A DNA stretch of 64,000 bases from Planctomycetota bacterium (lineage in GTDB: Bacteria; Planctomycetota; J058; JAJDCQ01), in the NCBI GenBank assembly GCA_029260755.1, contig JAJDCQ010000115.1, positions 24,929 to 88,928 of the forward strand, read 5' to 3'. The notes beneath the pieces were generated by a model. The model made no database searches, had not been told where the DNA came from, and saw only the letters and a program-made list of their open reading frames with translations. Positions 1,497-45,267 of the stretch are shown piece by piece. The number at the start of each line of letters is the position of its first letter. The first letter of the stretch is position 1. Made by a program: the position numbers and the translations under genes.

Positions 1497-1553
1497 GCGT
1501 AGCGCGGCTCGTCTTGCCGCGGCGGGCGCCGTCGAGTCGGGAGAGGTCTCGTC

Positions 1554-2438: not shown

Positions 2439-2465
2439 CGATCGGGCCGGGGCGGCGGAGGACGC

Positions 2466-4705: not shown

Positions 4706-4774
4706 GGGTCGCTAGCTACTCTTGGTCCTTGATCCGGTCCGGTGGTGAGATGACGTGCGAGGGGGTGCCCCGGT

Positions 4775-5302: not shown

Positions 5303-5309
5303 GCGGGGC

Positions 5310-6413: not shown

Positions 6414-6620
6414 GAGGGCTCGCGTTCGGGGTGGGTTGGGTGGGCGGTCTCGAAGGACCCGTCCCATCTCCGACGCTCCGCGTCCTGGGAGGTTCATTGG
6501 CATTGGGGCATCATCAATGCACCCGGTGGGAATCCGGCCGCCGGACCGCTCCTTCCCGCCGTGTGGACAGCAGGTTAGCGACTCGGCGCGGCGCCGGCAA
6601 GGTCCTTCTCCGGCGTCCGC

Positions 6621-8408: not shown

Positions 8409-8492
8409 GCGGGGTCGGTCCGGAAGACGAGGGCGGGAGAGGCGGCGGGCGGAGCGGCCCGAACGTCCTTCTATCATGCCGCTGGATGGCGA

Positions 8493-20993: not shown

Positions 20994-21041
20994 CGGTCCA
21001 GGCGACCGCTCGGCCCGGGAGCTCGGGCCGAAGGAGGAGAG

Positions 21042-21782
21042 ATGGTGAAGAGGTTCCTGACCGCCGCGATCGCGGCGACGATGATCCTGGGCGCGACGAG
21101 CGTGTTCGGGGCGCCTCCCGGCTACGACGCGGTCGAGGTGAAGGACGGCGGCACGATCAAGGGTCGCGTGGTCTTCGGCGGCGACGCCCCCGAGCGCAAG
21201 AAGCTCGAGGTGACCAAGGATCACGAGGCGTGCGGCAAGGATGCCAAGCTGAGCGACGAGCTCACCGTCAACGCCGAGAACAAGGGCATCCAGTGGGCCG
21301 TCGTCTACGTCAAGAAGATCAAGAAGGGCAAGGCCTGGCCCGAAGGCAGCATGAAGCAGACCTACGACCAGAAGGCCTGCGTCTTCACCGAGCACGTCAA
21401 GGTCATCCCCGTCGGCTGCACCCTCGAGATGAGCAACTCCGACGCGGTCCTCCACAACGTGAAGGCCGCGAGCATGAAGACCAACTTCAACGAGTCGATC
21501 CCCGCGAACGACAAGATCGAGCAGACGTTCAACTTCGACGAGCAGGTCAAGCTCGAGTGCTCGGTCCACCCGTGGATGAGCAGCTACCTCTTCGTCAGCG
21601 AGCACCCGTACGCGGTCGTCACCGACGCGGACGGAAACTTCGAGCTGACCGACCTCCCCAAGGGCAAGTACAACATCATCGCCTGGCAGGAGACGCTCGG
21701 GAAGCACGACAAGAAGGGCGAGAAGGTCGAGATCAAGGGTGGCGACACCCAGGAGCTCGAGCTCAAGTTCGAAGGCAAGTAG
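21042..21782 (+). CDS. Periplasmic cupredoxin (amicyanin/plastocyanin-like type-1 copper) protein with a C-terminal CarbopepD_reg-like beta-sandwich
   Basis: Signal peptide present. AVLHNV and LECSVHPWM match the amicyanin ligand set PHNV...C-x2-H-x2-M. The C-terminus DADGNFELTDLPKGKYNI resembles carboxypeptidase-regulatory-like domains. Confidence 0.5.
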   Translation: MVKRFLTAAIAATMILGATSVFGAPPGYDAVEVKDGGTIKGRVVFGGDAPERKKLEVTKDHEACGKDAKLSDELTVNAENKGIQWAVVYVKKIKKGKAWPEGSMKQTYDQKACVFTEHVKVIPVGCTLEMSNSDAVLHNVKAASMKTNFNESIPANDKIEQTFNFDEQVKLECSVHPWMSSYLFVSEHPYAVVTDADGNFELTDLPKGKYNIIAWQETLGKHDKKGEKVEIKGGDTQELELKFEGK

Positions 21783-21799
21783 CGCCGATCGCCGGCTGA

Positions 21800-21822
21800 G
21801 CGGGGTCGTCACGCGACCCCGC
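21800..21822 (+). terminator. GC-rich stem-loop (9-bp stem, 5-nt loop) between the cupredoxin and Rieske genes; possible attenuator or mRNA processing/stability element
   Basis: gcggggtcg-tcacg-cgaccccgc is a perfect 9-bp inverted repeat. No U-tract follows. Confidence 0.25.
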
Positions 21823-21845
21823 CGGTCCGGTTCGGAGGAAACCAG

Positions 21846-22604
21846 GTGGCAGACAACGAGTCCGCCGGCGCGGCGAAGCCCGCCGACGACGCGAAAGACG
21901 CACCCGCGAAGCCCGAGGCGGCGGCGAAGGAAGCCGCCGCCAAGGCCGATGCGGGCAAGGCGGTCAGCGAACCGGCGGCCAAGGCCCCGGCGGCCAAGGC
22001 GCCCGCCGCGAAGAAGCCCGTCAAGAAGGCGGTGAAGAAGGCGGCCAAGCCGAAGAAGGCCAAGGCGAAGAAGGAGCCGCTCCCGCCCGCGCTCATCCCG
22101 GTCGGGCGTCGCGACTTCCTCTCCTGGGTCGGCGTCGGCTGGGGCGCCATGCTCGCGAGCGCGGCCGTCAGCGGCGCGGTGCTTCAGCGCTTCCTGTTCC
22201 CGAACGTCCTCTTCGAGCCGCCGACCACGTTCACCGTCGGCTTCCCGGACGAGTACGGCGACGGCGTCCACGTGAAGTGGAAGGGCGCCTACGGGATCTG
22301 GCTCGTCCGGACGCCCAGGGACGATGTGCACGAGAAGCCGGGCTTCTACGCGCTGTCGGTCATCTGCACCCATCTGGGCTGCACGCCCAACTGGCTCTCC
22401 GCCGATCTCAAGTTCAAGTGCCCGTGCCACGGCAGCGGTTTCCGCCAGACCGGGATCAACTTCGAGGGCCCGGCGCCGCGTCCGCTCGAGCGGCACCGCA
22501 TCGTCTGGGCTCCCGACGGCCAGATCATGGTCGACAAGGGCAAGAAGTACCAGCAGGAGCTGGGACAGTGGGCCGACCGCGAGGCGTTCCTCGCTTACGG
22601 CTAG
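21846..22604 (+). CDS. Rieske [2Fe-2S] iron-sulfur subunit of a cytochrome bc/b6f-type complex
   Basis: CTHLGC and CPCHGS boxes are present, with an N-terminal Ala/Lys-rich extension and a TM anchor. Confidence 0.85.
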   Translation: MADNESAGAAKPADDAKDAPAKPEAAAKEAAAKADAGKAVSEPAAKAPAAKAPAAKKPVKKAVKKAAKPKKAKAKKEPLPPALIPVGRRDFLSWVGVGWGAMLASAAVSGAVLQRFLFPNVLFEPPTTFTVGFPDEYGDGVHVKWKGAYGIWLVRTPRDDVHEKPGFYALSVICTHLGCTPNWLSADLKFKCPCHGSGFRQTGINFEGPAPRPLERHRIVWAPDGQIMVDKGKKYQQELGQWADREAFLAYG

Positions 22605-22687
22605 GCTGACCCGGGTAGAGACACTTCGTCGCACGGCGTCGTCCAGGGGGGAAGGCGCCACACGCTCCTCGCAGCGAGACCGAATCG

Positions 22688-23473
22688 ATGGCTCTGACAG
22701 ACAAGCTCGTGAGTACGGTCACCGAGTCGCAGGTCTGGAAGTCGATCTTCCGGCACGGCATGCCGGACACCCCACGCAACCAGGCGCTGGCGGTGCTCTC
22801 GAACGTCTTCCTTCACCTGCACCCGATCAAGGCCAGGAAGAGTGGGATCAAGCTCCAGTACACCTGGTGCATGGGCGGGATCTCCTTCTTCCTGTTCCTC
22901 GAGCTGGCGGTGACCGGCATCCTCCTCATGTTCTACTACCGGCCGACGGCCGAGTACGCGTACATGGACATCGAGGCGCTCGGCGACCACGTGCCGATCG
23001 GGATCATGCGTGAGCTCCACCGATGGGGCGCGCACCTGATGGTCCTGGCGGTGTGGCTCCACATGTTCCGGGTGTTCCTCACGGGATCCTACAAGCCACC
23101 GCGGGAGTTCAACTGGGCCGTCGGCGTCATTCTGTTGACGCTCACCCTGCTGCTCTCCTTCACCGGGTACCTGCTTCCGTGGGACCAGCTCGCGATCTGG
23201 GCCATCACCGTCGGGTCCAACATGGCTCGAGCGACCCCGTTCCTGGGACACGAGGGCCCCGGCGCGTCGCTCCTGATGCTGGGGGACATCCCGCTGGTTC
23301 ACGCGGGAGACGATGCGAGATTCGGGCTGATCGCTGGCCGGGCCGTCGGTGAGGCGGCTCTCCTTCGCTTCTACGTCCTGCACTGCATCGCGATCCCGTT
23401 CGTCGTCATGATCCTGATCTCGATCCACTTCTGGCGAGTCCGCAAGGACGGCGGGATCTCTGGACCTCTGTAG
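22688..23473 (+). CDS. Cytochrome b6-type subunit (N-terminal cytochrome b domain)
   Basis: 261 aa with four TM helices and haem-ligand His residues in the cytochrome b N-domain pattern (RELHRWGAHLMV..., LPWDQLAIWA). Confidence 0.85.
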   Translation: MALTDKLVSTVTESQVWKSIFRHGMPDTPRNQALAVLSNVFLHLHPIKARKSGIKLQYTWCMGGISFFLFLELAVTGILLMFYYRPTAEYAYMDIEALGDHVPIGIMRELHRWGAHLMVLAVWLHMFRVFLTGSYKPPREFNWAVGVILLTLTLLLSFTGYLLPWDQLAIWAITVGSNMARATPFLGHEGPGASLLMLGDIPLVHAGDDARFGLIAGRAVGEAALLRFYVLHCIAIPFVVMILISIHFWRVRKDGGISGPL

Positions 23474-23570
23474 ACGAACCGACGCATCGGTCGTCCTCGG
23501 GGGGAGGGCGGCGGCTCGAGTCAGCACGCAGACCTAGCGACGCTCGCTAGATCCTCTTTCGGAGAATGGA

Positions 23571-24653
23571 ATGGTCGAAGCGGCCAAGGCCATCGTCACC
23601 TTCCTGACCCAGCCGGAGTGGTTGATCACCCTCTCCGGGATCGCGATGGCTCTCTTCTTCTGGAAGAGGGACCAGCTCGTGCATCCGCGGGTGATGCTGC
23701 CCGTCGCGCTGGCGTCGACGCTCTTCTTCGTGCTCTCGTGCCTGAACGACAACTTCCGCGCGATCGTCACGAAACCCGACAACATCCCGATCGTCCTGCT
23801 CCTGGTCTTCGTCGGCTTCCTGTTCTGGCTGGCGATGTATCAGGCGGTGGAGAACGACAAGCGGATCGCGAACGGGTTGCCGCCTCAGGAGGCGGCCGAC
23901 GAGCCCGCGAAGGTCACGGTGTGGCCGAACCTCGTCTACACCGAGATGATCTGCATCATCCTGATGACGGTCGGGCTGGTCATCTGGAGCGTGTTCATCA
24001 AGGCGCCGCTCGAGGAGCCGGCCGATCCGTCCGACTCGCCCAACCCGTCGAAGGCGCCGTGGTACTTCCTGGGTCTCCAGGAGATGCTCGTCTACTTCGA
24101 CCCGTGGCTCGCCGGCGTGGTCTTCCCTGGCCTCATCATCGTCGGCCTCGTCGCCATCCCGTTCATCGACCGTAACCCCAAGGGCTCGGGCTACTACACG
24201 TTCGCCGAGCGGAAGTTCGCGATCAGCGTCTTCTGCTTCGGGTTCCTCGTCCTCTGGGTCCTGATGGTCATGCTCGGGACGTTCCTCCGCGGCCCGAACT
24301 GGAACTTCTTCGGCCCGTACGAGCACTGGGACGTCCACAAGCTCGTGCCGCTGACGAACGTCAACCTGTCCGAGTACATCTACGTGAAGTGGATGGGCCA
24401 GCAGCTCCCCGAGAGCATCCTGGTTCGTGAGGGGCCAGGCTTCGTCCTGATAGGCCTGTACTTCCTCGCCCTGCCGCCGTTAATGGCGAAGACGTTCTTC
24501 AAGAACTTCCTGCGAGACCTCGGGTTCATCCGCTACAACCTGATGGCGTTCCTCTTCCTGTTCATGCTGTTCCTTCCGATCAAGATGGTGCTTCGGTGGA
24601 CCATGAACCTGAAGTACATCGTCGCCATCCCCGAGTGGTTCTTCAACATATGA
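23571..24653 (+). CDS. Cytochrome b C-terminal domain / subunit-IV-like protein, extended form
   Basis: Contains PWYFLGLQEMLVYF (the PEWY-type motif of the cytochrome b C-terminal domain) plus extra TM helices; 360 aa. Confidence 0.8.
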   Translation: MVEAAKAIVTFLTQPEWLITLSGIAMALFFWKRDQLVHPRVMLPVALASTLFFVLSCLNDNFRAIVTKPDNIPIVLLLVFVGFLFWLAMYQAVENDKRIANGLPPQEAADEPAKVTVWPNLVYTEMICIILMTVGLVIWSVFIKAPLEEPADPSDSPNPSKAPWYFLGLQEMLVYFDPWLAGVVFPGLIIVGLVAIPFIDRNPKGSGYYTFAERKFAISVFCFGFLVLWVLMVMLGTFLRGPNWNFFGPYEHWDVHKLVPLTNVNLSEYIYVKWMGQQLPESILVREGPGFVLIGLYFLALPPLMAKTFFKNFLRDLGFIRYNLMAFLFLFMLFLPIKMVLRWTMNLKYIVAIPEWFFNI

Positions 24654-34757: not shown

Positions 34758-34822
34758 TGAGGTTCGGCATTGGCCTCGCACGGGGCGACGCGCGGTTGAC
34801 CCCGTTTGGTAGGGTGACCGCC

Positions 34823-35617
34823 ATGACCGAGAGCCCTGAGGCGGCCAACCAATCCGCAGCCCCCCCGACTCCGCCCCCCCTGGTCGTCGCCTCCGGGCTC
34901 CGCCGCGACTACCAGGTCGGACAGTCCACCGTCCACGCCCTCGCGGGGATCGACGTCACCATCGCCGCGAGCGAAGCAGTCGCCATCGTCGGCCGGAGCG
35001 GCAGCGGGAAGTCGACCCTGCTGAACGTGCTCGGCGGCCTCGAGCGGCCGAGCGCCGGGTCGATCACGGTCGCGGGGCACGACCTCGGCTGCCTCTCGCG
35101 GGACGAGCTCGCGGTCTACCGGCTGCGCACGGTGGGGTTCGTGTTCCAGTCGTTCCACCTGGTGCCGCACCTGTCGGTGCTCGAGAACGTGGCGTTGCCA
35201 ATGATGATCGCCGGCGTCGGCTGGCTCGCCCGACGGCGGCGGGCCAAGGAGCTGCTCGAGCGGACCGGGCTGAGCGAACGGATGCGGCATCGGCCGACCG
35301 AGCTCTCCGGCGGCGAGCGCCAGCGAGTCGCCGTCGCCCGCGCCCTCGCGAACGAGCCGAAGCTGCTCCTCGCCGATGAGCCGACGGGCAACCTCGACAC
35401 GAAGACGGCCGGCGAGATCATGGGCCTGATCCGCGAGGAGCGGACCCGGGCCGGGGCGGCGCTCGTCCTGGTCACCCACGAGCGCGACGTCGCCCACGAG
35501 AACGCCGAGCGGATGATCGAGCTTCAGGACGGCGCCGTGCTCTCGGATCGACCGACCGCCCCCTCCGGCGAGGTCGCCGAACAAGCAGACGCGGCGGGCG
35601 CGGAGGAGGCGGCGTGA
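34823..35617 (+). CDS. ABC transporter ATP-binding protein (LolD/MacB/FtsE-like)
   Basis: Walker A GRSGSGKSTLLN, signature LSGGERQRVAVARAL, Walker B LLLADEPTGNLD. Confidence 0.8.
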   Translation: MTESPEAANQSAAPPTPPPLVVASGLRRDYQVGQSTVHALAGIDVTIAASEAVAIVGRSGSGKSTLLNVLGGLERPSAGSITVAGHDLGCLSRDELAVYRLRTVGFVFQSFHLVPHLSVLENVALPMMIAGVGWLARRRRAKELLERTGLSERMRHRPTELSGGERQRVAVARALANEPKLLLADEPTGNLDTKTAGEIMGLIREERTRAGAALVLVTHERDVAHENAERMIELQDGAVLSDRPTAPSGEVAEQADAAGAEEAA

Positions 35618-36942
35618 AGCGCATCGACCTGATCCGCCTCACCCTCTCGAACCTCCGCCGCCAGAAGCTCCGCACCGCCCTGACGGTGACCGGCGTGATC
35701 GTCGGCACCGCCGCCGTGACGACGATGGTCAGCATCGGGATCGGCGTGAAGCGAAGCCTGATCGCCCCGCTCGAGCAGGCGGAGCTCCTCACCAGCCTGA
35801 CGGTGCAGCCGGTGAAGCTCGACCTCGGCTCGTTCAGCTTCTCCGATCTCGGGCGCGGCGGGATGCAAAAGCTCCGCGAGCGAAAGTCGATCACCGACGA
35901 GACGATCGCCGAGATCGCGGCCATCGAGCACGTCCGGGTCGTCTACCCCGACAAGAACGTGCCGCTCTCGCTCGAGGTCGAGGGCGGGAAGATCTCGGTC
36001 GTCGGGATCGACGTCATCCCGGACGCGGCCATCACCGAGGGCATGCGCGAGGCGATCCTCGCCGGCGGGTACTGGGATCAGACCGGCCGAGGCGGGGCCG
36101 TCCTGCCGAGCAGCCGGCTCGAGGACCTCGGCGTGGCGAGCCCCGAGGAGGCCGTCGGCCGAGACGCGATCTTCCGATCGCCCGGAGCGTTCTACGAGAC
36201 GAAGCCCGGCGCGGAGGTCTCCGAGAACCGGCGCCGCGTCACCGTCCCCATCATTGGCGTCTACGAGAGCCAGGCGCTCGGCCTGGCCGGCACCCGCGTC
36301 CTGCTCCCGCCCGGGGTCGGCGACGACGCCGCCGAGCTCGCCGGCCCGATCGGCAAGATGACCTTCGGCGGCCCCGTGAAGGACGGCGAGTACCGAGCCC
36401 TCTCGGTGAAGGTGACCGACTTCGAGCACCTCGACGAGGTCCGCGCCGCGATCGACGACAAGGGCTACGGCACGATGACGGCCGGCGACCTCATCGGCGT
36501 CATCGACACCGTGTTCATCGGCATCGAGGCGGCCCTCGGCCTGATCGGAAGCGTCGGTCTGATCGTCGCCTTCTTCGGCATCGCGAACACGATGGTGATG
36601 GCGGTGCTGGAGCGAACGAGAGAGATCGGAACGCTCAAGGCGCTCGGAGCCCGCGACCGCGACGTTCGCCGCCTCTTCGTGATGGAGGCGGCCACGATCG
36701 GGTTCCTCGGGGGCCTCCTCGGCGTCGGAGTCTCGAAGCTCCTCGGAGCGCTCGGCGACCTGATCGCCAACGCCTTCTTCGCCCGGGGCGAGAACCAGAC
36801 CCCGCTCGACCTCTTCCAGATCTCGACCCCGCTGGCCCTGGGAGCGGTCGCGTTCGCGGTGGTGACGGCCGTGATCGCGGGAGCCTACCCGGCGTGGCGA
36901 GCGTCGCGGCTGGACCCGGTGGTGGCGCTGCGCCATGAGTAG
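35614..36942 (+). CDS. FtsX-like ABC transporter permease (MacB/LolCE family)
   Basis: N-terminal TM helix, a large periplasmic domain and a C-terminal FtsX 3-TM domain (…GIANTMVMAVLERTREIGTLKALGA…). The ATGA overlap with the ATPase gene indicates translational coupling. Confidence 0.8.
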   Translation: MKRIDLIRLTLSNLRRQKLRTALTVTGVIVGTAAVTTMVSIGIGVKRSLIAPLEQAELLTSLTVQPVKLDLGSFSFSDLGRGGMQKLRERKSITDETIAEIAAIEHVRVVYPDKNVPLSLEVEGGKISVVGIDVIPDAAITEGMREAILAGGYWDQTGRGGAVLPSSRLEDLGVASPEEAVGRDAIFRSPGAFYETKPGAEVSENRRRVTVPIIGVYESQALGLAGTRVLLPPGVGDDAAELAGPIGKMTFGGPVKDGEYRALSVKVTDFEHLDEVRAAIDDKGYGTMTAGDLIGVIDTVFIGIEAALGLIGSVGLIVAFFGIANTMVMAVLERTREIGTLKALGARDRDVRRLFVMEAATIGFLGGLLGVGVSKLLGALGDLIANAFFARGENQTPLDLFQISTPLALGAVAFAVVTAVIAGAYPAWRASRLDPVVALRHE

Positions 36943-37099
36943 TGATGATCGATCGGCTCACGCAGCGGCGCAGAGTCGGCTTCGCCGACGATTTCTCACG
37001 CCAGGGACGCCAAGGGGCCAAGGCCGCCAAGGGTCCCGACTCGAACATTGGCGGGCTTGGCGTGACCGTGACGCGTCGGCAATGGCTCGGCGACGCCCG

Positions 37100-37196
37100 A
37101 ATCAATCCGAGCAATCCGCGAAATCCGCGGTTCGGTCTCTCTCGGCGTTGAGCCCAGTGGGAACCGCGGATTACGCGGATTACGCGGATTGCGAGT
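37100..37196. repeat. Palindromic intergenic repeat element, copy 3
   Basis: atcAATCCGAGCAATCCGCGAAATCCGCGG, then the core ttcggtctctctcggcgttgagcccagtgggaa, then CCGCGGATTACGCGGATTACGCGGATTGCGAG. Confidence 0.7.
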
Positions 37197-37332
37197 TGCC
37201 GGGTCCGGATTCATTGCCGTTGCGCGGGCCGTTCCAAAGGGCCGAAGGGGTCAGGTCTCGGATCTTCGCATCAAGGCCACCGTTGCAAGGATCCGAGACC
37301 TGGCGCGTGGGCTCTTTCGGCGCCGCCAACGA

Positions 37333-37743
37333 TCACTCCGTGCCGCTGGCCGACGTCCCCACCGCGAGCCAGATCGTGGTGATCAAGACCCCGAGCCCGG
37401 CGACCGCGACGGCGCCCACGAGCCCGTCCCCACTCAGATCGAATCGGACGATCTGAATCGAGATCGCGAGGGCGCCCAGGGCTCCGAGGATCGCGAAGGC
37501 GGCGCCGATGAGCCGGTAGTCGATCCTCAGACCGGAGAACTTCGGCGCCCGATCCGGGGGCAGGGGCGCCAGCGGCCGACCGGCCTCGCGCTCGGGCGCG
37601 GCCGCAACGTAGCGTCCGACGCTCGGCGCCGGCTCCCGCCGCATCCCAGCCGACGGAGACGGCCCGCGCACCGGGTCCTCCGTCTCCCGGAGCTCACGCT
37701 TGCGCTCGGCGAGTCGATCGAGCATGTCGCGGTGCTCGCTCAT
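37333..37743 (-). CDS. Small hypothetical membrane protein
   Basis: 136 aa. A charged N-terminus and two C-terminal TM helices (LIGAAFAILGALGALAISIQIV, VGAVAVAGLGVLITTIWLAV). Preferred over the Arg-rich antisense ORF 37189..37920. Confidence 0.4.
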   Translation of the reverse strand: MSEHRDMLDRLAERKRELRETEDPVRGPSPSAGMRREPAPSVGRYVAAAPEREAGRPLAPLPPDRAPKFSGLRIDYRLIGAAFAILGALGALAISIQIVRFDLSGDGLVGAVAVAGLGVLITTIWLAVGTSASGTE

Positions 37744-37907
37744 GACGCCATCCTAGCCGCCACGACCAACGGGGCGAAGGGGTCAGGTCTGGTCAGGTCG
37801 GTTCCCGAACGAAACAGAGAGAGGCGCAGAGCCTCGATCTCGATCGAAGCGCTGCGCCTCTGCGTGAGGTCAGGTCATTCTCGGGGACCTGAACCGGGCG
37901 ACGACGA

Positions 37908-39806
37908 CTACCGGCCGTAGTCGATCACGCGCTCGGTCGTGTTGCCGTAGGCGTCCGTCGCGACCACCCGGACGAGCTTGTCGGGCGGGAGGTCGATCTC
38001 GACCTCGAACGCTCCGTCGGCGCCGACCTTCACGGCGGTGCCGTTCACGGTGACGACGGTCTTGGGGTCGGCCTTGCCTCCCACCTTCACGCGGGTGGCG
38101 ACCTCGAGGCTCGGGCCCTTGTCGTCGATCGCGACGCGGATCCGGGCGGCTCCGACGTTGCCGGCGTTGTCGGTCGCCTCGGCAACGATCCAGTGCTCGC
38201 CGCCGGGGAGCTTGACCGTCGCCTCCCAGGCTCCGTCGGCGCCCCTGGTCGCCGGCTGGCCTCCGATGGTGACGGTCGCAATGTCGTCTCCGGGCACCTT
38301 CGTCTTCACGATGACCTCGCCGGCGTGGCGGGTTCCGTCGCCCGGGCTGGCGATCGTGACGCTCGGGGCGGTCGAGTCGCGGGCGACGCTGATCGACTGC
38401 TCGGCGCGGTTGCCGGAGAGGTCGGTCGCGACGGCGACGATGCGGTTCACCCCCTCGGCGAGGATGACGTCGACGGCGTAGCGGCCGCCGCCGAGCTCGG
38501 TCGCCTCGACGCCGAGCACCTCGACCTTGCTCACGCCGCCGTCGTCGGTCACCTGGACGACGGTGCGAACGCGGTGGCCGCGCACGGCCGAGTCGCCGGC
38601 CGGCTCGAGGAACGCGATCCCCGGCGGCGTCTCGTCGAAGAGGACGCGGATCTTGGCCTCGCCGGTCTTGCCGCGAGTGTCCGTTGCCTTGGCGACGATG
38701 GGCGTCCATCCCTGCCCGAGGTCGACGTCGACCAGGTAGGTGCCGTTGGCGCCGGGCGCCTTCCTGTCGTTGACGGTCACGTCGAGCTTTCCGGCTCCGC
38801 CGAGCGTCCGCACCTGGACGCGGATCTTCCGGGCCGACGCCGTCGAGCCGTCCTCGGGCATGAGGATCTCGACGATCGGACCGATGTTCGCCAGGTCGGA
38901 GACCGGCTTGCCGTCGGTGAGGGTGCAGATGTTCTCCTTGGGGATCATCGCCGCGTAACCGCTCTGGACGTCGGCCTCGGCGAAGCGCTCGGCGACCCGC
39001 GCGATCTTCACGATCGCGACCTTGATCCGGTCGCGGCCGAGCGACTCGCCCGTCCGCGGGTCCTTGACCGCGCTTCCCTGGGCGTAGACGTCGAACACCT
39101 GCCCGGACTTGATCCCGCCGGACGAGCCGCGGTTGATCTTGACCTCGCGCTCGGAGCTCGCGATCGCCCGGATCGGGGCGAGCTGGCCCATCACCTTGCC
39201 GACGATCTTGCGGACGCACTCGATGTAGAACTCGTCCTCCTCGTCCCCGCTGAGGCGGTCCTCGGGGCCGCGGCCGCGCGCCTTGAAGCGCTTCCGGACG
39301 TCGACCTTCTCGGCGAGGATGATCTCGCCCGTCTCGGCGTCGACGATCTTCACGTCGGCGACCATCGTCCCGCGCGGGTTGTTCAGGTAGTGGGTGGTGT
39401 TGGGGACGCTCTTGCGGTCGACCTCGAGCCGCCAGATCGACATGGTCGCGCTCAGGAGATAACGCGCGCCGATCATCTTGCCGGCCCGGACGGCCCGGTT
39501 CGGGTCGAGCGCGCCGCTCGAGCTCAGCTCCTGCTCGCTGAGCAGGCTCTCGAGCTTCACCCGCTCGACGACGGTGAACCGCCCCATCCGGACGAGGGCG
39601 CCCTCGACGCGGGTCGCGAGCCGGGTGACGCCGGCGTCGACGACGCCCGGCGACTTGAACGGCAGGACGCAGATGCTCGGTTTCTCGTCCTCGGCGCGGG
39701 CCGCAGTCGCGGGGCCGGCGAGGGCCGCCGAGAGCCCGATGATGGCCGCCATCGCAGCCACGAAGCCACTACGGCGCATAGCGTTGCGTCGAATCATCGT
39801 GATCAT
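37908..39806 (-). CDS. CsgG-like lipoprotein fused to a C-terminal array of Ig-like/beta-sandwich repeats
   Basis: The N-terminal ~200 aa match CsgG-family features (SICVLPFKSPG..., VVERVKLESLLSEQELSSSG, AGKMIGARYLLSATM). The C-terminal ~400 aa are repetitive beta-rich modules (…GVNRIVAVATDLSGNRAE…, …WIVAEATDNAGNVGAA…). Start is uncertain within MIGRS…MITMIRRNAMRRSG. Confidence 0.6.
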   Translation of the reverse strand: MITMIRRNAMRRSGFVAAMAAIIGLSAALAGPATAARAEDEKPSICVLPFKSPGVVDAGVTRLATRVEGALVRMGRFTVVERVKLESLLSEQELSSSGALDPNRAVRAGKMIGARYLLSATMSIWRLEVDRKSVPNTTHYLNNPRGTMVADVKIVDAETGEIILAEKVDVRKRFKARGRGPEDRLSGDEEDEFYIECVRKIVGKVMGQLAPIRAIASSEREVKINRGSSGGIKSGQVFDVYAQGSAVKDPRTGESLGRDRIKVAIVKIARVAERFAEADVQSGYAAMIPKENICTLTDGKPVSDLANIGPIVEILMPEDGSTASARKIRVQVRTLGGAGKLDVTVNDRKAPGANGTYLVDVDLGQGWTPIVAKATDTRGKTGEAKIRVLFDETPPGIAFLEPAGDSAVRGHRVRTVVQVTDDGGVSKVEVLGVEATELGGGRYAVDVILAEGVNRIVAVATDLSGNRAEQSISVARDSTAPSVTIASPGDGTRHAGEVIVKTKVPGDDIATVTIGGQPATRGADGAWEATVKLPGGEHWIVAEATDNAGNVGAARIRVAIDDKGPSLEVATRVKVGGKADPKTVVTVNGTAVKVGADGAFEVEIDLPPDKLVRVVATDAYGNTTERVIDYGR

Positions 39807-39981
39807 TGCCTCCGAGCCTGGTGCGGGGTCCCGCGACGTGGGACGCACCGACCGCCCTATCATTCAGCGGCGACTGAGATTCCACAATGGACGAAGACGC
39901 CGGAAACGCCAACCGGCCCCGGGAGGGCGCTGGCGTCGCCGGCGTCTCGCGCCTGCGAGGATCGATCTCCGGGAAGAGCGA

Positions 39982-40581
39982 CTACGCGCGCTTCTTCCGG
40001 ATCTCCTTCTCGTTGATCCAGACGATCTCGGCGAGCTCGATCGACTCCAGCATGAGGGTCAGCTTGTAGTGGATGATGCGCTTGCCGTCGCGCTTCTTGT
40101 CGATCGAGGTGAGCTCGCCCGAGAAGAAGACGTCGGCGCCGACCTGCTTGCCGAAGGCCTTCGCCTGCTTCGGGTCGACCGCGCCGCTCTCCATGTACTC
40201 GATCTCGTCGAGGATGTCCTGACGCCGCTCCTTGTCCGCGGCGAACCGGAACCGGCCGCTCCGGATGAGGCCGTTGCGGATCGAGTTCATCACGTTCCGC
40301 ATGTCGATGTGCTCGGAGGTCTTGTTCCGGACCTTGCTCAGGAGCACGATCAGGCGCTGGCCCTCCTTGGTCTCGTTCTGGAAGGCCTGGATGGCCGGAT
40401 GACTGTTCATGTCATCGATCATCTCCTCGGCCATCATCTGGACGTCGGTCGAGCCGAAGTCCTCGGTGAGGGTCTCGACGGCCTCCTCGTCCTCGTAGGT
40501 CACCTGCTGACCGCCACATCCGGCGATCGCCAGGAGCGCGAACGTCAGCGCCAGCCCGAAACCCTTCCGCGTCGTCTTCAT
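39982..40581 (-). CDS. LpoB/COG3417-like lipoprotein
   Basis: Lipobox LLAIAGCGG. GKQVGADVFFSGELTSI matches the LpoB/TolB-N-like lipoprotein family motif. Confidence 0.55.
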   Translation of the reverse strand: MKTTRKGFGLALTFALLAIAGCGGQQVTYEDEEAVETLTEDFGSTDVQMMAEEMIDDMNSHPAIQAFQNETKEGQRLIVLLSKVRNKTSEHIDMRNVMNSIRNGLIRSGRFRFAADKERRQDILDEIEYMESGAVDPKQAKAFGKQVGADVFFSGELTSIDKKRDGKRIIHYKLTLMLESIELAEIVWINEKEIRKKRA

Positions 40582-40740
40582 CGATCGTAGCTCCGTCTCG
40601 ATTCGGGCGAAGCCCCGGCGCCCCGTCCGAACTCTGGACAGCGGCCGGGGCGATCCGATTCGAAGTGCGACCGACGCCGCCCCCCGAACCGTCTTCCCCC
40701 TCGTTCGTTCTGTTCTCTTCCCGACGGCCGCGTCAGACCG

Positions 40741-41166
40741 TCACTTGACCTCTTGCGGCCGACGTACGGCCAGCTTGAACGACTTGGCCCGCCCATCCGG
40801 CGCGGTGCCCTTGATCGGCAGGCGCTGGTGGCCGTAGATGATCTTCGGGTTCCAGTGCTCGGTGTGGCTCTGGAGCTCGAAGCCCGACTCGTCGAACCAC
40901 TCGAACTCGTACTCGAAGCGGATCGTGTCGTCGTCGAGGTTGACGAGCGTCGCCTGGACCTCCAGGAACCCGCTCGTCTCGGCGTTGCGCGTCTTGATGT
41001 CCTGGATCTTCAGATCGTCGTAGAGATCCTCATCGCCGATCAGGACGTCACTCTGTCCGCTCTCGGTATCGACGTTAGCGACGTTTGCCGCCGAAGTCGA
41101 ACACCCGGCGGCGGTCGTCATCAGAAGCGCCACCATCACCACCGTCACCCGCGTACTCGCCGTCAT
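40741..41166 (-). CDS. YcfL-like lipoprotein (DUF1425-like)
   Basis: Lipobox TTAAGCS. FEYEFEWFDESGFELQ resembles the YcfL-family motif. Adjacent to an LpoB-like gene, as in enterobacterial ycfL-lpoB. Start is uncertain. Confidence 0.5.
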   Translation of the reverse strand: MTASTRVTVVMVALLMTTAAGCSTSAANVANVDTESGQSDVLIGDEDLYDDLKIQDIKTRNAETSGFLEVQATLVNLDDDTIRFEYEFEWFDESGFELQSHTEHWNPKIIYGHQRLPIKGTAPDGRAKSFKLAVRRPQEVK

Positions 41167-42775
41167 CCGAACCTCCATCATTGCTCATGCCCCACTTCGG
41201 CTCGGGAGCCTCGCCGATCTCGTCAGCGCCCTTGGCCATGTTCGCGAAGATGTTTCCGTTCACCGATCGGCAGTTGATGAAGAGCCGCCGCCCCTCGGGG
41301 ACGGTGACCTTGCCGAGCTTGAGAGAGTTGAGCTTCCCGCCGCCCTGACCGTGAACGCCGATCGAGAGGTCGGGATACTCGCCGGCCGGCACGGTCACCC
41401 TCAGCACTTGTAGGTTCCTTGGTAACGTCAACCAGCTCCGCAGATCGGCCTGCTCGCTGATCTCGGTCAAGACCGCCCCGGCGACCCGGATGCCGACGTT
41501 GCCCATCACGCCGCCCGCGCCGCCGCTCTGAAGCGCCGCCTGAGCCGCGATGTAGGTCGCCGCCGCCTTGATCCCGAGCCGGACCGCCTGCTTGATGCTC
41601 AACAGCAACATCCGATCCCACAGGAACTTGATCGCGACCGCCTCGATGTTCGTCAGGGAGTAGCTCTGCGCGAGCGCGTCGCTTCCCTTGAGGAGGGTGA
41701 TGTAGGCCTCCGGGGTCGGGCGGGTCTTGTACTTCGGGATCGCGATCTTGCCGTAGACGGTGTCGGTGAGGGGGTTCTTCATCAGGCCGGGGATGAAGAT
41801 CGGGAAGCGGACGGCCAGCTCATCCTTCTCGGGCGCGAGGCCGCACGAGTAGAGGATGAAGACGTCGCCGGTGCCGGACTGTGGCGTCCAGTCGCCCCCG
41901 CCGAACGTCTCCTTCCACTTGTCGTAGGCTTCCTGGTCGCGGAGCTTCTTCGAGATCCGGAGGAGGTCCTCCTTGATCAGCGGGAAGCCCGGGTTCATGT
42001 CGTAGACCCGCTCGTAGGAGATCCGCGCGTTGTCGAGCTCGTAGGAGTAGCCCCGATCGGCCTGCTCCTCGTAGATCACCGCGCTCAGGTAGTGGCCGAT
42101 CGCGAGGTCGTAGACGTTGCTGACCGAGTCGACGACCGCCTGTTGATCGGCCCGCGCCTTGTCGAGCTCCTCGGTCATCTTCGACATGGCCGCCGAGCAG
42201 TCGACGCTGGTGCCGTCCTCGGTCTCGCCCTCCTTCTCGCCGCGCGCCTCCTCGAGCTCCTCCTCGTACTCCTCGCGGAGCTCCTTGAGGCGCTGGTTCG
42301 TCCGGCGGATCTCGACGTGCGCCTCGTCGAGCCTCTCCTGGGTCTGACCGGCGCAGAGGTAGTTCATGCCCCAGAAGATGTGGATCAGCGCCTTCTCGAA
42401 CATCTCCCCCTTGTAGGGGATCGTCTTCTCGTTGATCAGCAGGCTCATCGCCTGCTGCCCGACCTGGGCGCCGGTGCTCTCCTGCTCGTACTCCTCGAAG
42501 AGCCCGAGCGCCGTCTTGAAGTCCGCGTTGCTCTTCTCGAAGTCGCCCGCGGTGTGGACGATCATCCCGCGCTCGAGGACGTAGCAGACCTTGTCGAGGT
42601 CACGTTGCAGGCCCTGCTCGAGGCCGTTGTAGGCCTCGGTGAACCGACCCGCCGCGAAGTGGTTTCGCGCCTCGAGCGTCTGGTCGGGATAGTCGGTGAC
42701 GACCGAGCACCCCGTCGTCCCCAGCAGCACCGTCGCGACGGTGAGTCCGATCGGCGCGAGCTTCCGCCCGTTCAT
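41075..42775 (-). CDS. Large hypothetical lipoprotein (COG3014-like)
   Basis: Lipobox LLGTTGCSV after MNGRKLAPIGLTVATV. ~560 aa with TPR-like helical regions and a Gly/Asp-rich tail. Same strand as the neighbouring lipoprotein genes. Confidence 0.55.
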   Translation of the reverse strand: MNGRKLAPIGLTVATVLLGTTGCSVVTDYPDQTLEARNHFAAGRFTEAYNGLEQGLQRDLDKVCYVLERGMIVHTAGDFEKSNADFKTALGLFEEYEQESTGAQVGQQAMSLLINEKTIPYKGEMFEKALIHIFWGMNYLCAGQTQERLDEAHVEIRRTNQRLKELREEYEEELEEARGEKEGETEDGTSVDCSAAMSKMTEELDKARADQQAVVDSVSNVYDLAIGHYLSAVIYEEQADRGYSYELDNARISYERVYDMNPGFPLIKEDLLRISKKLRDQEAYDKWKETFGGGDWTPQSGTGDVFILYSCGLAPEKDELAVRFPIFIPGLMKNPLTDTVYGKIAIPKYKTRPTPEAYITLLKGSDALAQSYSLTNIEAVAIKFLWDRMLLLSIKQAVRLGIKAAATYIAAQAALQSGGAGGVMGNVGIRVAGAVLTEISEQADLRSWLTLPRNLQVLRVTVPAGEYPDLSIGVHGQGGGKLNSLKLGKVTVPEGRRLFINCRSVNGNIFANMAKGADEIGEAPEPKWGMSNDGGSDDGEYAGDGGDGGASDDDRRRVFDFGGKRR

Positions 42776-42935
42776 GCTGGCCCCCTGCTCCTTCGAGCGG
42801 GCGCGCGGGCCGAAGCCGGGCGCGCCTTTGCTAAGCAACGATTGGAGGATCGCGAGGCTCTCCGCCCCGCGATCCTCGCGCTCCGATCGACACGGAGCCC
42901 GCCTGTCAGTCCATTCCGCGTCGACGCGCGGTCGT

Positions 42936-44012
42936 CTAGTCGTCGCCCGGCAGGCCGCCGCCGCGGCTGCCGCCCCGACGGCCGGTGTCCGGCGCGGCGT
43001 GGGCGATCGTGCGGACGATCGACCCGTTCGGAACGTCGGCGACCGCTCCGGAGACCTTCGCCTTGCTGAACTTGGGAAGGACCTGGATGATCGTCGCCTC
43101 GCAGAGCTTGATCTCCTCGGAGCCGAGCACCTCGCCGGTGTCGGGGTCGATCATCTCCTCGCCCTGCATGTAGACCGCGACGCGCTGGCCGACGCCGACG
43201 CCGGTTCCCTCGCCGCGGTTGAAGGTGAGCACGCCGCCGGTGAAGGCCATGACCTTCGCCGGGTAGATCGTGTCGAGCACCTTCTGGACGAGCGCGGTGA
43301 TGAGCTGACGGTGGACGTCGTCGGTGAGCTCGGCGGGGATGTCGAGCGTCTGCGAGTTCGCCTTCACCCGCTGCTTGAGCTCCTTGACGGCGCGCGCGTT
43401 CTCGGCGGCGACGATCCGACCGGTCGTCGAGTTGACGATCTTGATGTCGCAGATCATCTGCGCCTTGAGGATGCGGGTGTAGTGGTTCGTGCCAGGAATC
43501 TGGCGGAAGCCCTCGTTGAGGTCGTGCAGCGAGATGCTGCCCATGAGGAGGTAGTCGGCGCCGATGAGCTTGCCGAGCTCGATGTAGCGCGACGGGTCGA
43601 CCGCCCCGCTGTCGCTGAGCATCTGCTCGTCCATGACCTTCTGGAGCGCCTCGCGCTCCACGACCTTGAACTTGTTGCTCTTGACGAGGGTCGTGATGAA
43701 CTTGTCGGTGAGGAGGTTCGTCTCGCCCTGGAGGATCTTCTCGGATTCCTCGGCGGTGAGCTCGGTCGAGTGCGGCCCGCGGACGATCCGGACCTTCTTG
43801 TTGCGCAGAACCTGCTGGTAGTTGAAGTCGAGCACCGCGATGCTCGCCTTCCCCGACTTCGCCGGGGGTGGCGGCGCCGCGGACGGGTCCTCACCCTCGT
43901 AAGGGTCGCCCTGCGCGAGCGCGCTGGCGGGCGCGAACCCGAGGACGAAGACCGCGGCGAGGGCGGCACACGCGAGCGTGACCGCGAGGCGGCGAGGCGA
44001 ACGAGGAGCCAT
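42936..44012 (-). CDS. CsgG family lipoprotein (curli production assembly/transport component-like)
   Basis: Signal peptide; ASIAVLDFNYQ, VVEREALQKVMDEQMLSDSGAVD and LGKLIGADYLLMGSISL are characteristic of CsgG (PF03783). 358 aa. Confidence 0.7.
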   Translation of the reverse strand: MAPRSPRRLAVTLACAALAAVFVLGFAPASALAQGDPYEGEDPSAAPPPPAKSGKASIAVLDFNYQQVLRNKKVRIVRGPHSTELTAEESEKILQGETNLLTDKFITTLVKSNKFKVVEREALQKVMDEQMLSDSGAVDPSRYIELGKLIGADYLLMGSISLHDLNEGFRQIPGTNHYTRILKAQMICDIKIVNSTTGRIVAAENARAVKELKQRVKANSQTLDIPAELTDDVHRQLITALVQKVLDTIYPAKVMAFTGGVLTFNRGEGTGVGVGQRVAVYMQGEEMIDPDTGEVLGSEEIKLCEATIIQVLPKFSKAKVSGAVADVPNGSIVRTIAHAAPDTGRRGGSRGGGLPGDD

Positions 44013-44346
44013 GGGTGTGTTCCTCCGTGGATCGACAGGCCGCGCTCGGCGTCGTCCCGGTCAGGGGCGACGAGCTGGTCCGTCCGATGGTGTCCTGGAT
44101 GGGCAACAGCTCCCGGGTCCAGCGCGGCCCTGCGCGCAGACCGGGTGGCATGGACGTGCGACGCCCGAGAGGCGCTCGTATTCGCAGGATTCTAGTGAGC
44201 CCGCGGCGACGGGTCAACCGGCGCGACGACCGCGCATGGAATCGACATCCTTATGTAGCAGAATCGTTTGTGCGAATCATCTCGCGGATTCTCGCGGCTC
44301 CGAGCCGGCCCGAGGCGGCTTTCGGCGACGCCGAGCCCGTCCTAGA

Positions 44347-45267
44347 ATGATGACATCCCGCGACCCCTGCCCCGGAGCGCCCGTGACGACCCCCGCCGCC
44401 AACTTCGGCGATCGCCTCGCCGACGCCGTCCGCGCCCGCGGCCCCGCCTGCGTCGGGATCGACCCGCGCCCCGACTGGCTCCCCGAGGACGTCCTGCGCG
44501 AGGGCGACATCGGCGCGACGCTCCGCGCCCACGGCGAGGCGGTCGTCGAGGTGGTCGCCGACGCCGCCTCCACCGTGAAGCTCAACTGCGCCTTCTTCGA
44601 GCGGCACGGCGCCGACGGCTGGTCGGCGATGCTCTCGATCGCCCGCGCCGCGCGGGCGCGCGGCCTCGTGACGATCGCCGACGCCAAGCGCTCCGACATC
44701 GGGCCGAGCGCCGCGGCCTACGCCGACGCGTTCCTGGGCGATGACTCGCCGTTCGACGCCGTCACGGTCGTCCCGTGGCTCGGCGAGGACGGCCTGACCC
44801 CGTTCATCGACGCCGCCCACCGAGGCGGTCGCGGGATCTTCTGCGTCCTGCGGTCGTCGAACCCCGGCGCCGAGCGGCTCCAGGAGGTCGAGACGGCGGA
44901 CGACGGGCCGCTCTGGGAGAGCCTCGGACGCACCCTCGCCGCGGCCGAGAAGCCCGGGTCGAGCGGCCTCGGCGCCCTCGGCGCGGTCGTCGGCGCGACG
45001 GTCCCCGACGCGGTCGCCCGCGCGCGCCGCGTCCTGCCGGCCGGCTGGCTGCTCCTCCCGGGCTACGGCGCGCAGGGCGGCGGCGCGGCGGCGATCGTCC
45101 CCGCCCTCGACGAGGCCGGCCTCGGGGCGATCGTCAACGCGTCCCGTTCGGTCGTCTTCCCGTGGCGTGCGGACGGCGAGGCGCCCGGGCCGAGCTGGCG
45201 CGACCGGGTGCGGGCGGCGCTCGACGCCATGAACTCGGACCTGGGCTCCGCGACCCGTCGCGAGTGA
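44347..45267 (+). CDS. pyrF: Orotidine-5'-phosphate decarboxylase, type 2 (long form)
   Basis: ACVGIDPR, KLNCAFFE and IADAKRSDIG motifs. ~306 aa from the ATG at 44347. Confidence 0.8.
   Translation: MMTSRDPCPGAPVTTPAANFGDRLADAVRARGPACVGIDPRPDWLPEDVLREGDIGATLRAHGEAVVEVVADAASTVKLNCAFFERHGADGWSAMLSIARAARARGLVTIADAKRSDIGPSAAAYADAFLGDDSPFDAVTVVPWLGEDGLTPFIDAAHRGGRGIFCVLRSSNPGAERLQEVETADDGPLWESLGRTLAAAEKPGSSGLGALGAVVGATVPDAVARARRVLPAGWLLLPGYGAQGGGAAAIVPALDEAGLGAIVNASRSVVFPWRADGEAPGPSWRDRVRAALDAMNSDLGSATRRE

Follow-up and report, generated by a model that had tools for sequence, protein, structure and literature searches.

Among the described systems closest to the locus analysed here is the cj0089-cj0090-cj0091 operon of Campylobacter jejuni, which has the same components in the same order as the core of our locus: a TPR lipoprotein (~450–570 aa), a DUF1425 protein (~120–145 aa) and an LpoB-like protein (~200 aa). 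The three Campylobacter genes are co-transcribed, Cj0091 is found at the outer membrane, and Cj0089 fractionated with the inner membrane; a Cj0091 mutant adhered more weakly and colonised chicks more poorly (PMC3100323). The Helicobacter pylori counterparts of this operon are HP0018 and HP1457 (PMC3100323, PMC11394524). HP0018, reported to be the homologue of Cj0089, is seen in foci at the envelope and co-immunoprecipitates with two peptidoglycan hydrolases, AmiA and MltD, and its deletion leads to chains of outer-membrane vesicles and an altered cell shape (PMC11394524). In Escherichia coli, LpoB activates PBP1B, and bona fide LpoB together with the UB2H docking domain is reported to be restricted to enterobacteria (PMC3060616). 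The E. coli genes ycfL and lpoB are adjacent, in the same gene row as nagZ; the adjacency of DUF1425 and LpoB genes and the homologous LpoB globular domain are shared with our locus, but E. coli K-12 has no annotated COG3014 gene next to ycfL-lpoB.

The window, i.e., the whole 64-kb stretch of DNA that was analysed, contains at 37908–44012 five consecutive, co-oriented minus-strand open reading frames with coding-type composition (GC3 0.88–0.96). Their positions and strand are confirmed, and the Pfam assignments of the preliminary description are essentially retained. A sigma-70-like promoter candidate on the minus strand (44189..44217; TTGACC, 17-nt spacer, TAGAAT), identified purely by its match to the consensus, is located 177 nt 5′ of gene 1 and is the sole promoter-like site in 37000–44600, where shuffled sequence averages 0.3. 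At the other end, a strong minus-strand hairpin (37820..37861; 20-nt arms, 90% complementary, 2-nt loop) is found 47 nt past the stop of gene 5 and overlaps the sole terminator-like site (37821–37835). Because all five genes lie on one strand between a single promoter-like site and a single terminator-like hairpin, they are predicted to form one operon of exported envelope proteins. The locus had been described as a lipoprotein cluster; all five products are indeed exported, but only those of genes 2, 3 and 4 are lipoproteins, both CsgG-like proteins having signals of the signal-peptidase-I type.

The core of the operon is, to judge from homology and gene order, a widely conserved trio of lipoproteins encoded by genes 2, 3 and 4. 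Gene 2 (41075..42775, minus strand) encodes a COG3014-type lipoprotein of 566 aa, counted from the ATG that precedes the lipobox (a TTG further upstream would give 587 aa), with the lipobox ...LLGTTG|C at Cys23. This protein matched no Pfam family; its assignment follows from homology to a protein (P0045) that bears the NCBI name "COG3014 family protein." It consists of a TPR-like helical half (residues ~28–292; 41900–42694), a C-terminal β-sandwich with an inserted helical hairpin and a EQADLRSWLTLP motif (residues ~300–515; 41231–41878), and a disordered, acidic tail (residues 519–566). Cluster representatives of the large COG3014 family number 8,224 at E≤1e-3 and 3,181 at E≤1e-30; members of the family have a near-invariant lipobox Cys, the TPR-like half and a conserved C-terminal domain with the motif EQADLRSW. 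In its resemblances, the TPR half is as close to the pilotins PilF, PilW and TadD as it is to NlpI.

Gene 3 (40741..41181, minus strand), the start of which runs into the tail of gene 2, encodes a 146-aa YcfL/DUF1425 lipoprotein (PF07233, 1.7e-19) with the lipobox ...TTAAG|C at Cys27. Its matches in the PDB are 3O0L (1.4e-7) and the putative lipoprotein structure 4GIO (0.0098), which we take to be the structure of Cj0090. Gene 4 (39982..40581, minus strand) encodes a 199-aa LpoB-like lipoprotein with the lipobox ...LAIAG|C at Cys22, assigned by PF13036 (1.2e-37) and by TIGR02722 (139.7 bits, cut-off 110.55). As a single sequence it retrieved no LpoB from the PDB at E≤1; the profile of its family matched LpoB at 5e-11, the next-best PDB match being PelC, and hhalign aligned it to E. 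coli LpoB with 97.8% probability and 16% identity. The gene 4 family has an invariant N-x-T patch that corresponds to N110/T112 of LpoB. However, the disordered linker of E. coli LpoB is replaced by a short conserved segment (YGDxxxVETxxxDFGSTDLQ, present in 24 of 24 aligned homologues), and since the globular domain begins ~24 residues past the Cys rather than ~59, reach to an inner-membrane synthase cannot be assumed for this protein. No PBP family was matched among the scanned open reading frames of the 64-kb window.

Linkage of the trio is maintained well beyond this genome: COG3014, YcfL and LpoB genes follow one another in this order, on the same strand and within 4 kb, in 63 of the 79 loci with a COG3014 homologue, and LpoB is present in 74 of these 79. 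These loci span at least eight phyla, with lineages that include Planctomycetota, Verrucomicrobiota/Kiritimatiellia/Lentisphaerae, Thermodesulfobacteriota, Gammaproteobacteria, Hydrogenedentes, Omnitrophota, Sumerlaeota, Eisenbacteria and SAR324. In its gene content and gene order, the trio is an operon of the Cj0089-Cj0090-Cj0091 type. The tie to Cj0089 and HP0018 is indirect, being based on operon architecture, the match of gene 3 to the structure taken as Cj0090, a Vibrio homologue that bears the COG3014 name, and the report by Oakland that Cj0089 resembles Shewanella TPR proteins. The module itself is already known and widespread; in contrast to the C. jejuni operon, the locus sampled here, from a high-GC and probably planctomycete genome, has a FlgT-like periplasmic paralogue on either side of the trio, and one of these two is fused to Ig-like domains.

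Each CsgG-like paralogue consists of a domain of the TolB-N/LpoB/CsgG superfold followed by a putative FlgT_C/TsaP-like barrel, to which gene 5 adds four Ig-like domains. Gene 1 (CsgG1; 42936..44012, minus strand; 358 aa; PF03783 CsgG 1.5e-20, LpoB 2.8e-10) has a Sec signal with ASALA|QG cleavage (AxA|Q type), an α/β domain at residues ~50–250 (43263–43865) and a β-barrel at residues ~251–336 (43005–43262) that bears the family-invariant motif NRGxGxG...G(E/Q)xxxDPDTGExLG. Gene 5 (37908..39863, minus strand; 651 aa, shortened to 629 aa if the ATG at 39797 is the start; CsgG 3e-11) has a Sec signal with ARA|ED cleavage, an α/β domain at ~39168–39686 and a FlgT_C-like barrel at ~38904–39158. Neither signal contains a lipobox, and no lipobox or conserved Cys was found across 30 members of the CsgG-like family. 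The Ig-like array of gene 5, previously put at ~400 aa, is present, but comprises four repeats of ~85 aa each (residues 324–651; 37911–38894), ~330 aa in total, with a DNA repeat spacing of 252 nt. Pfam matches in gene 5 are Glucodextran_B in four stretches (9e-26), Big_13, Big_7 and FlgT_C (6.9e-5), and the NCBIfam matches include Ca_tandemer and OmpL47-type families. The Ig fusion is not unique, as ~15 homologues of 463–575 aa bear Ig-type domains.

In being Sec-exported and non-lipidated, and in having a TolB-N-like domain ahead of what may be a barrel of the FlgT_C type with an NRG...DxxTGE motif, the paralogues resemble, through weak matches, FlgT of the Vibrio flagellar H-ring (8Z5N) and TsaP, which forms the ring associated with the type IV pilus secretin (3JC8, 6VE2). 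The FlgT_C match scores 23.7 bits, under the Pfam cut-off of 27, the barrel aligns to TsaP at E 0.02–0.05 and weakly to FlgT_C repeats, and a weak match to FlgT_M was obtained with orthologues only. The paralogues have no LysM domain and no adjacent flagellar or pilus genes; flagellar and type IV pilus genes were found neither beside this cluster nor in related loci. A T2SS/T4P-like cluster with a PilM/T2SS-M-like gene occupies positions 1–8477 of the window, ~30 kb from the five genes.

The CsgG-like paralogues are accessory modules, different phyla attaching different superfold proteins, with barrel, PEGA or Ig-like fusions, to the trio. In 37 of the 79 loci, proteins of the same superfold are encoded next to the trio, the types being PEGA-fused proteins (27), a 250-aa barrel (19), CsgG1-type proteins (10) and gammaproteobacterial CsgG (7); in Hydrogenedentes, three or four copies of the module are fused in one chain. 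Among the domain families looked for in the cluster, CsgG, YcfL/DUF1425 and LpoB were recovered, whereas DUF799 and DUF4810, the partners in the CsgG-like/DUF799 (GNA1162)/DUF4810 lipoprotein trio, were not found. PelB-PelC (5T10, 9H80) is similar in that a TPR-containing protein is encoded with a small same-fold lipoprotein, but the COG3014 protein lacks a porin domain, genes for Pel biosynthesis are missing, and the resemblance to PelC in sequence falls short of significance.

We tentatively favour a role of the operon as an outer-membrane-tethered periplasmic scaffold for the maintenance of peptidoglycan and envelope, a function that we infer. The three lipoproteins would be located at the periplasmic face of the outer membrane, where the TPR half of the COG3014 protein would act as an adaptor or scaffold in the manner of NlpI, LpoA and BamD, docking the LpoB-like and YcfL proteins and recruiting peptidoglycan-remodelling enzymes. 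The FlgT-like proteins, which look less like a secretion pore than like paralogous, soluble scaffold proteins of the periplasm, might oligomerise on this lipoprotein core or bridge it, with the barrel and Ig array extending towards the wall; the whole assembly would then link growth and turnover of the peptidoglycan to the outer membrane. The published findings on HP0018, on Cj0089-Cj0091 and on LpoB and ycfL-lpoB of E. coli serve as hints towards such a role. Against it count the short segment behind the lipid anchor of the LpoB-like protein, the reported restriction of LpoB and UB2H to enterobacteria, the fractionation of Cj0089 with the inner membrane, the indirect tie to Cj0089 and HP0018, and the fact that genes for peptidoglycan enzymes are not conserved beside the module in the 79 loci.

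The preliminary description proposed a CsgG-type channel or secretion assembly, in which the two CsgG-family paralogues would form an oligomeric outer-membrane pore exporting a substrate, with the lipoproteins as accessories. CsgG (PDB 4UV3, 6LQH; type VIII secretion) does share with them the α/β periplasmic domain and PF03783, which scores above its gathering score of 20.8 bits in both (73.9 bits in gene 1 and 43.4 in gene 5); hhalign to E. coli CsgG reaches 95% probability, and the monomer model contains three unusually long strands (154–171, 177–194 and 200–217). Yet the profile is covered only at positions 4–150 and 47–152 of 210, so that the 358-aa protein, with its extra C-terminal barrel, is not the canonical CsgG it had been thought to be; with the NCBIfam CsgG equivalog, for which the cut-off is 505, the score is 13.7 bits. 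The hhalign match spans precursor residues 72–198 of 277 and ends before TM2. As judged from this profile alignment and the monomer model, the hairpin equivalent to TM1 is four residues shorter than that of CsgG and is charged (D, E, R, R, K), and ~13 residues of the region of TM2 and the C-terminal helix are missing, leaving no return strand; the model has three long strands instead of four. Nor is CsgG the best structural match, the predicted fold being about equally close to CT253, FlgT, CsgG, PelC, LpoB and LptE. The lack of a lipid anchor throughout the family argues against the pore as well, as does the lack of such a protein in most carriers of the core trio (42 of 79 loci). The curli partners CsgA, CsgB, CsgE and CsgF, already reported as missing, were indeed matched by none of the 44 window open reading frames scanned. 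A CsgG-like exporting pore, and with it a curli-type β-barrel secretion channel, is therefore very improbable in our opinion.

A ring or conduit role is conceivable because many superfold proteins, including CsgG, PelC, TraT and FlgT, form rings around conduits. Periplasmic rings or a lattice under the outer membrane could be built by the FlgT-like pair, perhaps joined by the LpoB-like lipoprotein, and could encircle or support a conduit or structure encoded elsewhere, with the TPR lipoprotein as a pilotin-like adaptor, just as FlgT is part of the flagellar H-ring, TsaP surrounds the PilQ secretin and PelC surrounds PelB. We consider this possible but doubtful: it is consistent with the weak alignment of the barrel to TsaP and FlgT_C repeats, the rank of PelC directly after LpoB among PDB matches of the LpoB-family profile, the fused chains of Hydrogenedentes, the closeness of the TPR half to pilotins no less than to NlpI, and the T2SS/T4P-like cluster in the same window, but secretin, porin and flagellar genes are not conserved beside the module in the 79 loci, and the fold also occurs in the monomeric LpoB, LptE and TolB-N. 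Display of the lipoproteins and the Ig-array protein on the cell surface for attachment, as proposed for Cj0091, appears very improbable. The defects of the Cj0091 mutant (PMC3100323) and the four-domain array of gene 5, of a kind common in adhesins, fit such a role; against it, surface exposure was not shown for Cj0091 (PMC3100323), the module occurs mostly in free-living environmental phyla, and no surface-export or anchoring signal was found in gene 5. Moreover, lineages use Ig, PEGA and barrel fusions interchangeably, which fits spacers better than specific adhesins.

More speculatively, and beyond the envelope-maintenance scaffold that we favour, the trio with its interchangeable TolB-N-superfold partners might, though we think it unlikely, be an ancient multi-phylum envelope machine never described as such, perhaps a periplasmic ring or lattice under the outer membrane, of which enterobacterial LpoB-PBP1B and ycfL-lpoB would be a derived and reduced remnant; peptides conserved at the C-termini of the partners (TPGSSxKPxxW, for example) would then serve as docking signals for the TPR lipoprotein.

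The preliminary description had treated the five genes as a linked unit of exported envelope proteins, and this stands; conservation of the gene set in other genomes makes it more than chance. Unlinking in relatives was looked for and not found: all five genes occur together in three further metagenomic contigs or MAGs, of which at least one is labelled Planctomycetes. One (L082) keeps the same order and holds an orthologue of gene 5, and the other two (L087 and a JGI contig) have a permuted order, namely Ig-fused, plain, COG3014, DUF1425 and LpoB. Recurrence of the set in two different gene orders indicates that the linkage is selected.

LpoB is a textbook outer-membrane regulator of cell-wall synthesis and is thought to be a recent enterobacterial invention. 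The comparisons reported here place LpoB-fold lipoproteins within a much older and very widespread three-gene module (more than 8,000 sequence clusters, in many phyla), to which further proteins with this fold have been added again and again.

In the window, five open reading frames follow one another on the minus strand at 37908–44012, with third-position GC of 0.88–0.96, as is typical for genes in a window of about 70% GC. None of the window's own proteins has a name on record; the family assignments of the preliminary description were broadly reproduced. Gene 1 (42936–44012, 358 aa) matches CsgG (PF03783, 1.5e-20) and LpoB (PF13036, 2.8e-10). Gene 2 (41075–42775, 566 aa from the ATG before its lipobox) has no Pfam or NCBIfam family; its homologues extend as far as a protein from Vibrio listed at NCBI as "COG3014 family protein". 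Gene 3 (40741–41181, 146 aa) belongs to DUF1425/YcfL (1.7e-19), and gene 4 (39982–40581, 199 aa) matches LpoB (1.2e-37), scoring above the cut-off of the NCBI LpoB equivalog model. Gene 5 (37908–39863, 651 aa, or 629 aa from the ATG at 39797) combines a CsgG match (3e-11) with a weak FlgT_C match (6.9e-5) and four Ig-like repeats of the Glucodextran_B/Big type (9e-26). A consensus scan of 37000–44600 found a single promoter-like site, which precedes gene 1 by 177 nt, and a single terminator-like site, within a palindrome with 20-nt arms 47 nt past gene 5. Where the five genes adjoin or overlap, none of the four junctions has an Rfam match or a shared repeat, and neither regulatory RNAs nor common intergenic repeats were found in the 160–185-nt gaps. 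The simplest reading is a predicted single five-gene operon.

Several minor features of this region may be recorded. GC content is 0.64–0.67 across 40000–44000, compared with 0.70–0.77 on either side. The last ~48 codons of the COG3014 gene (41075–41181) encode an acidic tail, modelled with pLDDT below 50 and absent from all homologues; over ~90–105 nt they coincide with the beginning of the ycfL-like gene, including its signal peptide. The public call of the latter gene (126 aa) begins within that signal peptide and has probably been cut too short.

The cluster had been described as one of lipoproteins that might form an outer-membrane channel or secretion assembly. The former holds for genes 2, 3 and 4, in which lipoboxes can be read, but not for genes 1 and 5, which carry ordinary cleavable signal peptides (ASALA↓QG and ARA↓ED, respectively). 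Across an alignment of 30 members of the CsgG-like family, the cleavage sites are of the AxA↓Q type (signal peptidase I) and no cysteine is conserved, so these proteins are not lipoproteins. Profile–profile comparison with E. coli CsgG gives a significant match (95% probability), which covers only residues 72–198 of the 277-residue precursor and stops just short of the second transmembrane hairpin; the segment matching the first hairpin is four residues shorter, rich in charged residues, and reads HDLNEGFRQIPGTNHYTRILKA. The AlphaFold model of gene 1 (pLDDT 81.4) has three long strands, not two hairpins; after them come a helix and then a small barrel of its own. It is in this C-terminal barrel, which aligns weakly to the repeated barrels of TsaP and to Pfam FlgT_C, that the family's most conserved motif (NRGxGxG...G(E/Q)xxxDPDTGExLG) is located. 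As stated in the preliminary description, no curli partner family is matched anywhere in the window, and a CsgG trio of the DUF799/DUF4810 type likewise found no matches in the family search. A curli-type channel was rejected on the missing conserved cysteine and lipidation, on the end of the CsgG match before the second hairpin and on a structural comparison in which CsgG did not match best; that genes 1 and 5 form CsgG-type pores is, in our opinion, very improbable.

Searching with the 358-aa paralogue showed that the Ig fusion recurs in about 15 homologues of 463–575 aa, in which a poly-proline linker and Ig-type domains follow the barrel. P0048 (575 aa; L081:2017-6179) is a second Ig-fused CsgG-like protein from the same sample, on another contig and without an adjacent trio; it is flanked by two proteins that match no Pfam family, one coiled-coil-like (573 aa) and one of 171 aa. 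A gene 1 homologue with 51% identity, P0051, stands alone on L083 and L084:2804-11008; in this single case, two genes of peptidoglycan hydrolase families, an M23 peptidase and a CHAP/GH46 protein, lie ~2–4.5 kb away.

The five genes proved to be linked in relatives, whereas unlinked genes there would have refuted the preliminary description. The nearest relative found, ENA metagenome contig L082 (~55% identity), has the gene order of the window: CsgG-like (346 aa), COG3014 (split in this assembly), DUF1425, LpoB and, last, a protein of 489 aa that joins a CsgG-type N-domain to Ig repeats and shares 51% identity with gene 5 across the Ig region. The same families occur in permuted order in L087 (GCA_019636275.1, a MAG labelled Planctomycetes) and in a JGI contig, namely Ig-fused CsgG-like (466–470 aa), plain CsgG-like (319–332 aa), COG3014 homologue (719–720 aa; 32% identity, E 2e-67), DUF1425 and LpoB. 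Gene content kept through rearrangement argues for selection on linkage. No description of this five-gene planctomycete version was found in the literature. As a separate observation, a MacB/FtsX-type (LolCDE-like) ABC ATPase and permease pair on the plus strand (34796–36942) converges on the cluster, and L082, the closest relative, also has a homologous permease close to its cluster (L082:7123-8445); none was seen beside the module in other phyla.

Genes 2–4 have a far wider distribution. A COG3014 family profile retrieved 8,224 representatives of 50%-identity clusters among 1.84 billion proteins searched, 3,181 of them at E ≤ 1e-30. A scan of one genome per species gave 191 relatives, from which 79 loci were kept; all their ORFs were translated and searched with the window's proteins and iterated profiles. 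YcfL and LpoB genes stand beside the COG3014 gene on the same strand in 63 of the 79 loci, almost always in the order COG3014-YcfL-LpoB. An LpoB gene is present in 74, and most of the exceptions lie on short contigs. By their labels, the carriers belong to Planctomycetota, Verrucomicrobiota, Kiritimatiellia, Lentisphaerae, Thermodesulfobacteriota/"Deltaproteobacteria", Gammaproteobacteria (Shewanella, Paraferrimonas, Fluviicoccus, Pseudomonadales), Hydrogenedentes, Omnitrophota, Sumerlaeota, Eisenbacteria and SAR324.

At least one further protein of the TolB-N superfold adjoins the trio in 37 of the 79 loci (all-ORF clustering). These accessories include PEGA-fused proteins (27 loci, mostly of the Planctomycetota-Verrucomicrobiota-Chlamydiota, or PVC, group), a 250-aa protein consisting mainly of the barrel (19 loci), orthologues of gene 1 (10 loci) and a PF03783-domain protein (2.3e-15; seven gammaproteobacterial loci). 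In two Hydrogenedentes loci, three or four units, each of a TolB-N-like alpha/beta domain and an FlgT_C-like barrel, are fused in tandem into one chain directly upstream of the trio (L016:5618-7918, 767 aa; L029:4631-7966, 1,112 aa). Genes 1 and 5 are thus one lineage's form of a wider pattern in which modular periplasmic partners accompany the lipoprotein trio; no description of this pattern was found in the literature. Beyond these partners, the trio has no functional neighbour conserved across lineages in the 79 loci: ORF clustering recovered only lineage-specific housekeeping synteny, and no PBPs, hydrolases, secretins or Lol proteins are kept beside the module.

Accessory CsgG-like proteins beside the trio share the C-terminal peptide [E/L]TPGSS[DE]xP[LMV]xW-COOH in two unrelated lineages, PVC-type (L019, L024, L026, L031, L048) and Gammaproteobacteria (L034, L036, L041, L042, L047, L066, L067). 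The C-terminus is LINVIQQExK in PEGA-fused partners and KLPRFxKLYARxF in the barrel partners of 250 aa; gene 1 and P0050 both end in LPGDD, not in the TPGSS-type peptide. Such termini may serve for docking, for instance to the TPR lipoprotein.

The model of the COG3014 protein (pLDDT 85.6, pTM 0.84) comprises a TPR-like helical half (~residues 28–292) and a beta-sandwich broken by a long helical hairpin that runs into the family signature EQADLRSWLTLP. Transmembrane anchoring by this hairpin was rejected, as no 19-residue window reaches a hydrophobicity of 1.6 family-wide; we treat it as buried or amphipathic, not as classically transmembrane. The LpoB-like protein is a true homologue of LpoB, but at profile level only: 5e-11 for the family profile against PDB structures of LpoB, and 97.8% probability at 16% identity against E. 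coli LpoB. The invariant N-x-T patch is kept, but the globular domain begins ~24 residues past the lipidated cysteine, after a conserved motif (YGDxxxVETxxxDFGSTDLQ), whereas the E. coli linker has ~59 residues. Typas et al. (PMC3060616) argue that this linker has to pass through the wall if the protein is to contact the UB2H domain, and they found LpoB and UB2H only in enterobacteria. The PBP1B-activator function is therefore not simply transferable to gene 4. Public annotations of such genes as "CsgG" and "LpoB" should be taken to indicate the fold and no more.

The YcfL protein of the window matches a putative-lipoprotein structure, 4GIO, which we take to be Cj0090, and a second DUF1425 structure. 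The C. jejuni operon cj0089-cj0090-cj0091 has the same architecture as the trio: its co-transcribed genes encode a 453-aa TPR lipoprotein, a 122-aa lipoprotein and a 207-aa lipoprotein (PMC3100323). Cj0089 has been likened to Shewanella TPR proteins (Oakland et al.), and a Shewanella locus (L030) is in our set. H. pylori HP0018 has in turn been equated with Cj0089, and HP1457 with Cj0091 and LpoB (PMC11394524). These links make a strong but indirect case that the window trio is an operon of the Cj0089-91 type. Deletion of HP0018 leads to chains of outer-membrane vesicles and altered cell shape; the protein is seen as foci in the envelope, and AmiA and MltD co-precipitate with it (PMC11394524). 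In E. coli K-12, ycfL lies directly upstream of lpoB, in the row ycfL-lpoB-nagZ. The trio is known as an operon; a search of the literature gave nothing mechanistic on YcfL, DUF1425 or COG3014, and the TPR component has neither a Pfam model nor a solved structure.

The gene set, the export signals, the folds and the conservation are shown; the mechanism is inferred. In our preferred model, tentative as a whole and much less secure than the identities of the proteins, the products form a periplasmic complex tethered to the outer membrane. Its adaptor would be the TPR lipoprotein, with the LpoB-like and YcfL lipoproteins as its fixed partners, and the FlgT-like products of genes 1 and 5, with their barrel and Ig array, would serve as spacers or oligomerising elements. 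The complex as a whole would act on peptidoglycan remodelling and outer-membrane-to-wall coupling. Homologues provide the support for this model (the HP0018 phenotypes, foci and co-precipitation with AmiA and MltD, the known role of LpoB in E. coli and the E. coli ycfL-lpoB-nagZ row). The main rival, a periplasmic ring or lattice round a conduit encoded elsewhere, draws on analogy with FlgT, TsaP and PelC and is, in our judgement, unlikely. A surface adhesin and a CsgG-type channel are both less likely still. The cluster is a good target for envelope biology, but it is no evidence for a new secretion system. The function of the module, once solved, would fill a gap in what is known of cell shape, of vesiculation and of how the outer membrane is tied to the wall, and would correct automatic annotations of "CsgG / curli channel" and "PBP activator LpoB" in environmental genomes.

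Two other regions of the window deserve mention. A type II secretion/type IV pilus-like cluster on the minus strand (1–8477) includes a PilM-like protein (3002–4705), a T2SS-M-like protein (2466–3005) and three ORFs of 175–618 aa without Pfam match. On the plus strand (16983–24653), there is a multihaem cytochrome c of 1,336 aa, parts of which are MtrC-like and FixO-like; next come a CarboxypepD_reg-like protein, a Rieske protein and a split cytochrome b, a succession that suggests an unusual bc-type respiratory complex.
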